From Promethearchaeota archaeon (GTDB lineage: Archaea > Asgardarchaeota > Lokiarchaeia > Sigyniarchaeales > SOKP01): a stretch of DNA of 55,464 nt. The notes under the pieces are model-generated. The model did no database searches. It saw only the letters and a program-made list of their open reading frames with translations, and was not told the origin of the DNA. A program made the position numbers and the translations under genes. The stretch covers positions 1 through 55,464 of the forward strand of contig JBHLMP010000025.1 of the NCBI GenBank assembly GCA_048938025.1. The letters run 5' to 3'. This document shows, one piece after another, positions 20,748 through 22,095 of this stretch. Positions within the stretch are counted from its first letter, which is position 1, and every line of letters begins with the position of its first letter.

Positions 20748-21972
20748 TTAGAAATAGTGCACAGTAATATAATCAGGTATTACTACTTCATCTTCTTTAT
20801 TTTTGCAAGCAACAAAATTTATTTTCATGTTTATTGATAGTGAGAGAAGACGTTTGGTTAAAATACCATCTATTATCAAATATTGGGTATGTTTATAATT
20901 TTTGATTTTTTCAAAAAGTTCTCCAACCGGTATATCAAATAGCTTCTCCATTGCTTTATTAAAACCTATACTATGACCAGGTTCAATATCTTTAATAGCC
21001 TCAATGATCGCAGATTCATTTTTAATATTACGATTTTTTAAAGCACTATATAGTCTATCTTCTTTACCCGTATATTCCAATTCAACTTTTTCCATATCTT
21101 TTATGTCTTTAAACAAATTAGCGTCTTTTTTGTTTTGTAATGCTTTTATCAATTGCTTTCTAGTTAATTCCTCAACCTCATATCCATCAGGAGCTCTAGC
21201 AATGAAATCAATTTTAGCAACTTGTAAAAGCTCCTTTAAAATGATCGTTCCACCCCTATCTCCATCCATAAAAGCTGTTACCGAACTCTTATTTTTTGTT
21301 AATTTTATTACTGACTTAGGTACTTGAGTTCCTTGAACTGCAATTGTATTTTTAACCCCAATCCTTAATAAGTTTAAAACGTCAGCACGACCTTCCACAA
21401 TTATTAATTCAGGATTAATATCTACTTCGGGTCCAGCAGGTAATTTTTCTTTACCCCAAGAAAGAATTTCTCCAAGTTTAATATCTGTATCAATTTGTTT
21501 TTCTATTTCACTTGGTTCTAAAGATTTTTGATCCCACTCTTTTAGAAGTTCAGTAGCACGTTTAATTATTTTTTTTCGTTTTGTTTCGCGAACATCACGA
21601 ATCTCTAAGAGTTTCATATCTGCTTCGCAAGGTCCAACCCTAGATACTGTTTCAACAGTTGCAGCTAATAGTGCTGTTTCTTTACGCGTGAGGCTACTAG
21701 GTATTTTAATGATCCCTTCGGAAATTCCTTCCTTGGATTCATTATCAACCTCGATTCTTCCAATTCGTCCAGATTTTTGTAAATCCCTTAAATCCAGATC
21801 CATAAGAAGTCCTTCGGTTTAGCCGATTAAGCCGAATTGGCTTCAAGTTTCTTTATCTCTGGCCAAAAATAGCCCCCACAATATCGCTTTTTTCTACAAC
21901 ACCTTTAATGCTAAATTTTACTTTTATAATATATTTAGTAGTAAATTCATTTTGACTGGTAATCTTGATCAC
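20748..21972 (-). CDS. dnaG: Archaeal DnaG (TOPRIM, exosome-associated), split gene: exon 1 21972-21859, exon 2 21818-20748
   Basis: Exon 1 TTKYIIKVKFSIKGVVEKSDIVGAIFGQ joins exon 2 TEGLLMDLDLRDLQKSGRIGRI; VEGRADV and DGDRGG TOPRIM motifs; about 394 aa if spliced. Confidence 0.93.
21819..21858 (-). other. Putative 40-nt bulge-helix-bulge mRNA intron in dnaG
   Basis: GGCC/GGCU 4-bp central helix, bulges AG^A and AA^A, inner helix GAU-A-AAG/CUU-A-AUC; removal gives CAG|ACC (Q-T) in frame. Confidence 0.8.
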
Positions 21973-22095
21973 TTCCTTAAATTTTATTTTTCATAATGAA
22001 ATCTAAGCTCACATCCAAAATTTATGAGAGTTAAATGATAAATTGTATGAGTTTGATTTTTTGAATTTTTTAAATAATTTTAATATATAATTTAA

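Follow-up and report, generated by a model that had tools for sequence, protein, structure and literature searches.

A candidate bulge-helix-bulge intron in the coding sequence of dnaG in an Asgard archaeon and its relatives

The primase gene dnaG of a Promethearchaeota archaeon (GTDB lineage Archaea; Asgardarchaeota; Lokiarchaeia; Sigyniarchaeales; SOKP01) lies on the minus strand of contig JBHLMP010000025.1 (assembly GCA_048938025.1), of which the 55,464 nucleotides from position 1 to 55,464 constitute the window analyzed here. Its coding sequence runs through GCT ATT TTT GGC CAG, is interrupted by an insert of 40 nucleotides (nt; 21858..21819), and resumes with ACC GAA GGA CTT CTT, such that the insert falls between the codons for GAIFGQ and those for TEGLL. 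The frame of the upstream part (exon 1) meets a TAA at the second codon of the insert, and that of the downstream part (exon 2) has a TAA immediately before ACC. The original prediction, made from the letters of this DNA, had described a 40-nt insert that splits GAIFGQ from TEGLL, shifts the frame and places TAA in both frames, and the sequence agrees with it to the base. The 38 residues of exon 1 match positions 1-26 of the DnaG profile NF003108 (E 5e-9), and exon 2 alone scores 360.9 bits against this NCBIfam equivalog for DNA primase DnaG (cut-off 300), starting at profile position 27, and its protein contains a Toprim domain. When aligned with two intron-less orthologues from the same genus, the two exons abut at column 38/39 with neither gap nor overlap. 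The genome, a metagenome-assembled genome (MAG) of 3.52 Mb in 88 contigs (96.7% complete, 5% contamination), contains a single dnaG, so that the second intact copy which the original prediction had named as a ground for refutation is absent, and a motif search found the 40-nt element to be unique within it. By these sequence matches, the host gene is a single-copy archaeal DnaG. We propose, with a rough probability of 0.88, that the insert is a real mRNA intron of the bulge-helix-bulge (BHB) type, in a relaxed form, which lies in the coding sequence of this gene and is removed by the tRNA splicing endonuclease EndA and the ligase RtcB.

The comparative evidence comes from a search with exon 2 in 161 genomes of the class, 153 of which gave a match. 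The junction was read in 97 loci, including seven intron-bearing loci that are second copies of genomes already included. An insert at exactly the same Q^T junction (site B; the caret marks a junction or a cut) occurs in 52 of the 153 dnaG-bearing genomes, distributed over the genera g1 (15), g12 (5), g14 (1), g16 (3), g17 (2), g20 (1), g22 (18) and g23 (6), together with one genome of family f3. For the other full-length matches of family f1, to which the window belongs, the uninterrupted status was deduced from an open frame of at least 36 codons upstream; 38 of these matches were read directly, among them L051, L054, L061, L062 and L096, which are interrupted further upstream. The same-site inserts comprise 45 distinct sequences of 29-43 nt, of which 41 are not a multiple of three in length; in all 45, the exon-1 frame runs into a stop within three codons. 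Every intron-bearing locus has an open and conserved exon 1, the single short case lying at a contig start.

An alignment of the 45 distinct inserts with their flanking exons reveals a constant architecture at the exon-intron borders. The central helix H, which joins the exon to the intron (columns 13-16 with 56-59), is paired in 180 of 180 cells and is accompanied by 3-nt bulges on both sides in every sequence. The third base of the Gly codon, a wobble position, changes in concert with its intron partner, the pair being CG in 28 sequences, AU in 7, UG in 6, GC in 2 and GU in 2; without an RNA helix, it would be hard to account for five pair types at a synonymous site. In the inner helix h', the first three pairs form in 93.3% of cells, with one compensatory change, and the outer exon-exon helix, which consists of conserved codons and displays no two-sided change, is paired in 91% of cells with a 5-nt 3' loop. 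The structure as a whole is paired in 94.6% of cells, versus 29-62% after a shift of the 3' partners by 1-3 columns. Further, RNAalifold predicts the same 4-bp helix with no structure supplied. The 5' bulge is AA^A in 26 sequences, AG^A in 9, AA^U in 8 and AA^G in 2, the 3' bulge is AA^A in 42 of the 45, and a cut after the second bulge base gives an in-frame GAIFGQ^TEGL junction in every Q^T sequence. The pairing is therefore kept in the relatives, as had been anticipated, with helix H paired in 45 of 45 distinct same-site inserts and bearing compensatory changes. Given the weakness of the outer helix and its composition of conserved codons, we assign the motif to the relaxed HBh' form rather than to the canonical hBHBh' form.

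The pairings earlier described for the intron of the window itself, namely exon GGCC with intron GGCU, the AGA and AAA bulges, and an inner helix of GAU-A-AAG with CUU-A-AUC, are each found in the sequence (Table 1). Its characterization as a relaxed BHB with a weak outer helix likewise fits, in that the shape is HBh'-like and the outer helix, composed of conserved codons, needs the 5-nt loop on its 3' side. The cleavage rule invoked there places each cut behind the second nucleotide of the bulge; PMC2738675 gives this rule for cbf5 introns, and it restores the Q-T junction exactly. Most of the family's same-site introns have a GCC...GGC hairpin similar to that of the window. Two further observations concern the local sequence: the 3' half of the intron (21819-21836, minus strand) looks like a tandem duplication, UCGGCUUAA followed by UCGGCUAA; and in the minimum-energy fold the intron UUCGG can pair with the exon-2 CCGAA (21811-21817), a possible competing conformer.

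Table 1. The dnaG exons, the candidate intron and its predicted bulge-helix-bulge elements in the window
Feature	Positions	Strand	Basis and remarks
dnaG exon 1	21859..21972	-	GTG start at 21972..21970; 38 codons, ending ...GAIFGQ; NF003108 positions 1-26; aligns to columns 1-38 of intron-less orthologues
Candidate BHB-type intron, 40 nt	21819..21858	-	same-site inserts in 52 genomes; RNA contig joint 21817 to 21858, 1 nt ambiguity
dnaG exon 2	20748..21818	-	356 codons and stop, starting TEGLL; NF003108 positions 27-267, Toprim; only dnaG match in the genome
Central helix H, 5' strand, exon GGCC	21861..21864	-	third base is the Gly codon wobble; alignment columns 13-16 with 56-59, 180/180 cells; pair 15-57 has five pair types; RNAalifold
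Central helix H, 3' strand, intron GGCU	21821..21824	-	covariation alignment and RNAalifold
5' bulge AG^A, predicted cut after 21859	21858..21860	-	read from sequence
3' bulge AA^A, predicted cut after 21819	21818..21820	-	read from sequence
Inner helix h', 5' strand GAU, partner AUC at 21825..21827	21855..21857	-	columns 20-22 with 53-55, 93.3% of cells paired, one compensatory CG
Intron-internal hairpin AAGCC-AAUUC-GGCUU	21829..21843	-	sequence; seen in constrained fold

Public sequencing data add a glimpse of the transcript. Twenty public runs contain part of the gene, and the four that are registered as RNA were all aligned to the window. In one of these, the sediment RNA-Seq metatranscriptome X20, a 201-nt contig with a depth of 2.8 lies on 21661-21817 and 21858-21897, skipping 40 nt; the joint has 40 letters on its shorter side and a single letter that fits both sides, features that speak against an artefact of template switching at a repeat. 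Of 197 letters in the contig, 4 depart from those of the window (~98% identity). Five genomes are 94-99% identical in this stretch, G012, G085, G098 and G105 among them, and all have the intron in their DNA; the intron-less relatives are at most 76% identical in the exon-2 piece, below the threshold of 90% that was used. The coverage in the other three RNA runs (X16, X18 and X19) falls on other parts of dnaG and is uninformative for the junction. The spliced junction that had been predicted for RNA thus has one counterpart, an X20 contig without exactly these 40 nt, which is direct but thin evidence for splicing.

The genome also encodes the enzymes that such a reaction would call for. It has two EndA paralogues, of the alpha and beta types. 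The alpha-type protein (201 residues) aligns end to end with the Aeropyrum pernix chain 3P1Z_B (E 2.4e-35), retains the catalytic Tyr, His and Lys in this alignment, and contains a loop with KPR that is aligned to 3P1Z_B and that we take to be L1, the crenarchaeal loop. The beta-type protein (200 residues) is without the His, and RtcB is encoded as well (566 bits). According to Kaneta et al. (PMC5829648), the Asgard EndA is an (alpha-beta)2 enzyme with an L1 insert linked to broad specificity, and a 2026 preprint (10.64898/2026.10.13.758758) gives two EndA paralogues for 44 of 60 Asgard genomes. In a separate survey of all contigs of this genome, ARAGORN called only 32 tRNA genes, 18 of them marked as intron-bearing and several of these at odd positions; the tRNA set is probably under-called owing to non-canonical introns, as reported for other Asgard genomes.

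Combining these elements, we envisage the following course of events. In the pre-mRNA, exon GGCC would pair with intron GGCU to give a 4-bp central helix with one 3-nt bulge per strand, the intron-internal helix (GAU/AUC and beyond) would close the 5' bulge, and the exon-exon outer helix would remain weak. A heterotetrameric (alpha-beta)2 EndA would then cut after the second base of each bulge, and RtcB would join the exons, restoring the GAIFGQ^TEGLL frame. EndA and RtcB are very probably the acting enzymes, and the intron would be released, presumably as a circle. Translation of an unspliced mRNA would end at the second codon of the intron. A regulatory use of this splicing, or a regulatory likeness to that of HAC1/XBP1, is conceivable.

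Several points weigh against this reading. The outer helix is poor and is built of conserved codons, which places it beyond the reach of covariation. The covariation score of 0.188, compared to 0.122 +/- 0.007 in shuffles and reached by 0 of 500 of them, comes from related sequences that are not independent, so that the shuffle control overstates its significance. The minimum-free-energy fold of 21800-21880 (-18.1 kcal/mol, z -0.32) is not the BHB, which reaches -9.0 kcal/mol when constrained; thermodynamics of a single sequence neither finds nor supports the motif, and it is the comparative data that carry the case. On the side of RNA, the junction is spanned by one contig only, at a depth of 2.8, and RNA libraries can hold DNA, while the unspliced form is covered by no contig in the four RNA runs.

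These weaknesses leave some room for the removal of the insert from the RNA by an agent other than EndA and RtcB, such as another nuclease or self-cleavage, in favor of which one may point to the relaxed motif, its weak outer helix and a BHB that is not the minimum-energy fold. We nevertheless regard it as improbable: 4 bp between two 3-nt bulges, with a cut after the second bulge base, is the ruler of EndA and yields the right frame at four different sites in dnaG genes (see below), and the genome encodes both a broad-specificity EndA and RtcB. A self-splicing group I or group II intron was considered as a candidate in its own right and rejected, as the ribozyme core of such elements spans hundreds of nt against the 40 nt of the insert, and Rfam returned no family at E <= 1 across 21650-22050; this shortness and the empty Rfam result bear equally on any such agent.

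In programmed translational bypassing, as in gene 60 of phage T4, the ribosome hops over a retained gap that is flanked by matching take-off and landing codons. The insert might similarly be retained in the mRNA, and both the stop found within three codons of the take-off region in 45 of 45 inserts and the hairpin that the insert holds would suit such a mechanism. However, the locus presents no matching take-off and landing codons, with CAG or CAA preceding the insert and UAA preceding the ACC landing site; the insert lengths vary from 29 to 43 nt; the conserved feature is the 4-bp exon-intron helix with its two 3-nt bulges, which fits an endonuclease; and the RNA contig is without the 40 nt. 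Bypassing accordingly strikes us as very improbable, and we would give no better odds to the production of two separate products from RNA that is never joined, namely an N-terminal peptide of 38-40 residues and a DnaG that starts inside exon 2. Such a peptide would indeed arise from an unspliced mRNA, and the window has an ATG at codon 6 of exon 2; yet this codon is TTA or TTG in the relatives, leaving no conserved start, the TEGLL upstream of that ATG is conserved, the covarying exon-intron helix would be left without a role, and the RNA contig joins the exons. Finally, a broken gene, whether through an error of assembly or sequencing or through pseudogene decay, would account for the frameshift and the stops in a MAG of 88 contigs with 5% contamination, but can be considered excluded because the same junction holds an insert in 52 separately assembled genomes (an assembly error was among the outcomes that the original prediction had named as refuting it), both exons are open and conserved in a single-copy dnaG, and the intron ends covary with the exon.

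The interruption of dnaG is not confined to the Q^T junction. Four f1 genomes without the Q^T insert have an insert of 30-31 nt at a position 22 nt upstream (site A), inside the Ile codon of SDI^V. This intron resembles the Q^T intron and has a helix H of the AGAU/GUCU type, with a BHB that is clean in two loci and imperfect in the other two. When candidate motifs are ranked, the expected site A junction is the top candidate in one of the four loci (L061), ties for second in L054, and falls outside the top three in L051, where three of the four pairs of H form, and in L062, where the first h' pair is mismatched. In family f6, the gene of both genomes is split by 37 nt between E and K/R, at a point four codons upstream of site A (site C); the BHB is canonical there (H GUAG/CUAY) and is the top-ranked in-frame candidate in each.

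A search of the phylum, comprising 379 genomes, extended these observations; outside the class, the junction was read in five genomes and in family f19. In the latter, another Asgard family, a dnaG match was obtained from 18 of the 19 genomes searched, and all 18 genes are split by 28-31 nt within the codon that follows TEGL, a point 13 nt downstream of Q^T (site D), which makes this family an independent second instance in support of the BHB reading. Here, helix H is GCCU/GGGU, GCCU/GGGC or GUCU/GGGC, and the best-scoring in-frame BHB restores the conserved protein in 17 of the 18, the second-ranked one doing so in the remaining case. A Q^T insert is also present in one genome each of families f20 and f33 (34 and 32 nt), with unrelated sequence; in the f20 genome (G270), the in-frame site-B reading has three of four H pairs by eye and is ranked below spurious candidates by enumeration. 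The gene is uninterrupted in one genome each of f13 and f18 and in the 16 read from f2, f5 and f7. In all, dnaG is interrupted in at least 78 of the genomes read. Many genomes of f13, f15 and f18 show two or three DnaG matches, and in two of them (G175 and G242) the second match belongs to the same open frame, as its C-terminal part; the remaining multi-match genomes of these families could hide further interruptions.

On a quick DnaG tree of 44 rows, the distribution of the Q^T label requires a minimum of eight changes, with a minimum of three occurring across branches that are well supported; long branches make the deep placements unsure, and we do not read from this tree in which order the intron was gained and lost. 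A single ancient gain followed by repeated exact losses, as proposed for cbf5, seems the simpler reading, because the intron sequences are alike across genera, though the tree cannot settle it. A more sweeping view, possible but rather doubtful in our estimation, is that dnaG hosts, throughout the Asgard archaea, a family of tRNA-type introns that is old and continues to move or slide, with four sites (E^K/R, SDI^V, Q^T and after TEGL) within ~50 nt and in at least six GTDB families, and that exact, protein-catalysed mRNA splicing by EndA and RtcB regularly takes part in gene expression there.

The searches extended to other genes. The own-genome scan for BHB motifs required all four pairs of H, at least three of them Watson-Crick, an h' of at least 3 bp, an intron of 14-110 nt, and an open reading frame fusion of at least 30 codons per side and 150 in total; it returned 11104 matches against 11103 with a parallel-pairing decoy and hence does not discriminate. 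Narrowing it to A-rich bulges and 20-60 nt gave 238 matches against 236 for the decoy, with dnaG recovered and nothing learned on other introns. The genome-wide scan that had been put forward as a check thus succeeded in retrieving dnaG and failed to separate real motifs from decoys. Four short intron motifs sought in the own genome have a hairpin-bearing copy in dnaG only. An intron pattern was matched in 57 of 135 genomes of the family, and every match with the GCC...GGC hairpin is the dnaG intron; we judged the others to be random, and a reversed control pattern also gave many. With that pattern, there is no sign in the 135 family genomes that the intron has spread to other genes. The genome's own cbf5 has no interruption.

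A few peculiarities of individual dnaG loci and records deserve mention. The MAG G136 has two dnaG copies (contigs C40 and C91), one uninterrupted and the other with a 38-nt Q^T intron identical to that of G124, and its bin probably mixes two populations. In the intron-less loci L007 (G021) and L012 (G008), a one-base frame change occurs in an A run after the usual GTG (...KEVI), ~110 nt upstream of Q^T, which may be a homopolymer error or may mean that the start lies elsewhere. Locus L095 (G128) has an in-frame TAG at dnaG codon 4 (V-V-I-*-I-T-N), where its relatives have AAG, and G060 has one TAG inside its DnaG match. For L045, a public record with 92% identity to the window in DnaG is titled 'Candidatus Hodarchaeota', and near-identical neighbours are titled Promethearchaeota; the labels are inconsistent.

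If our interpretation is right, dnaG would be the second archaeal protein-coding gene with a BHB intron after cbf5, and the first in Asgard archaea, the nearest lineage to eukaryotes and one already known for the crowding of its tRNA genes by introns of this kind. The lineage and the scale of the phenomenon are notable to specialists. It has a practical side for annotation, as gene callers will give dnaG as truncated, frameshifted or without its N-terminus in at least 78 genomes. The four sites, with inserts of 28-43 nt and many switches between presence and absence inside single genera, offer a natural series for the gain, movement and precise loss of introns in a protein gene without a spliceosome, as well as a concrete substrate for probing the specificity of Asgard EndA. 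Should the more sweeping view hold, further mRNA introns would lie undetected in Asgard genomes, and the level of this exosome/primase protein may be tied to the capacity for tRNA splicing.

Among known systems, one parallel is with eukaryotes. In HAC1/XBP1 splicing, the nuclease IRE1 cuts stem-loop/bulge sites, a tRNA ligase (of the RtcB type) joins the ends, and the resulting frame change serves as a regulated stress switch. The proposed dnaG splicing shares with it the non-spliceosomal removal of a short mRNA intron, endonuclease cuts followed by RtcB-type joining, and a change of frame; in contrast, the proposed nuclease for dnaG is the tRNA endonuclease and not IRE1, and regulation as a stress switch is a feature of HAC1/XBP1. 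The XBP1 intron is named in PMC12530127.

We found neither a dnaG intron nor an Asgard mRNA BHB intron in the full-text literature, supplements and most subscription journals lying outside its coverage; within the same bounds, the literature agrees with the original prediction, which had named crenarchaeal cbf5 as a precedent and knew of none for dnaG or Asgard. An intron in the cbf5 pre-mRNA of Crenarchaeota was reportedly described by Watanabe et al. in 2002. The dnaG introns differ from it in their host gene, in their lineage (Asgard as opposed to Desulfurococcales or Sulfolobales), and in the presence of at least four insertion sites within ~50 nt in different families; moreover, cbf5 splicing is backed by cDNA and enzyme assays, whereas that of dnaG is backed by one metatranscriptome contig. 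The likenesses are nonetheless considerable, for the paper of Yokobori et al. (2009; PMC2738675) describes a short intron in coding sequence with a relaxed or unconventional BHB at its borders, an EndA that is hetero-oligomeric, an uneven occurrence interpreted as gain and loss, and a gene easily mis-annotated as frameshifted. The same paper predicts the cbf5 cuts between the second and third bulge residues, and treats introns in other archaeal protein genes as predicted and not confirmed.

As of 2020, according to PMC7714728, no archaeal BHB intron beyond those of tRNA and rRNA had been reported except in the cbf5 mRNA of Crenarchaeota, to which that study added a BHB intron in the 5' untranslated region of the HVO_1309 mRNA of Haloferax volcanii. 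This case likewise has an mRNA as substrate of the archaeal splicing endonuclease; however, its intron lies in the untranslated leader, leaves the frame uninterrupted and is handled by a homodimeric enzyme of the euryarchaeal type (PMC7714728), unlike the dnaG intron, which interrupts the frame. A further likeness is to the non-canonical HBh' tRNA introns of Asgard archaea themselves, which, as described in 10.64898/2026.10.13.758758 and PMC11291895, have the same motif and presumably the same enzymes, draw half of the motif from the exon, and occur in the same organisms, which are unusually rich in them. What sets dnaG apart from these is that the host RNA is an mRNA, that codons supply the exon half of the helix, with a Gly wobble base that covaries with the intron, and that the reading frame survives only if the intron is removed with single-nucleotide precision.

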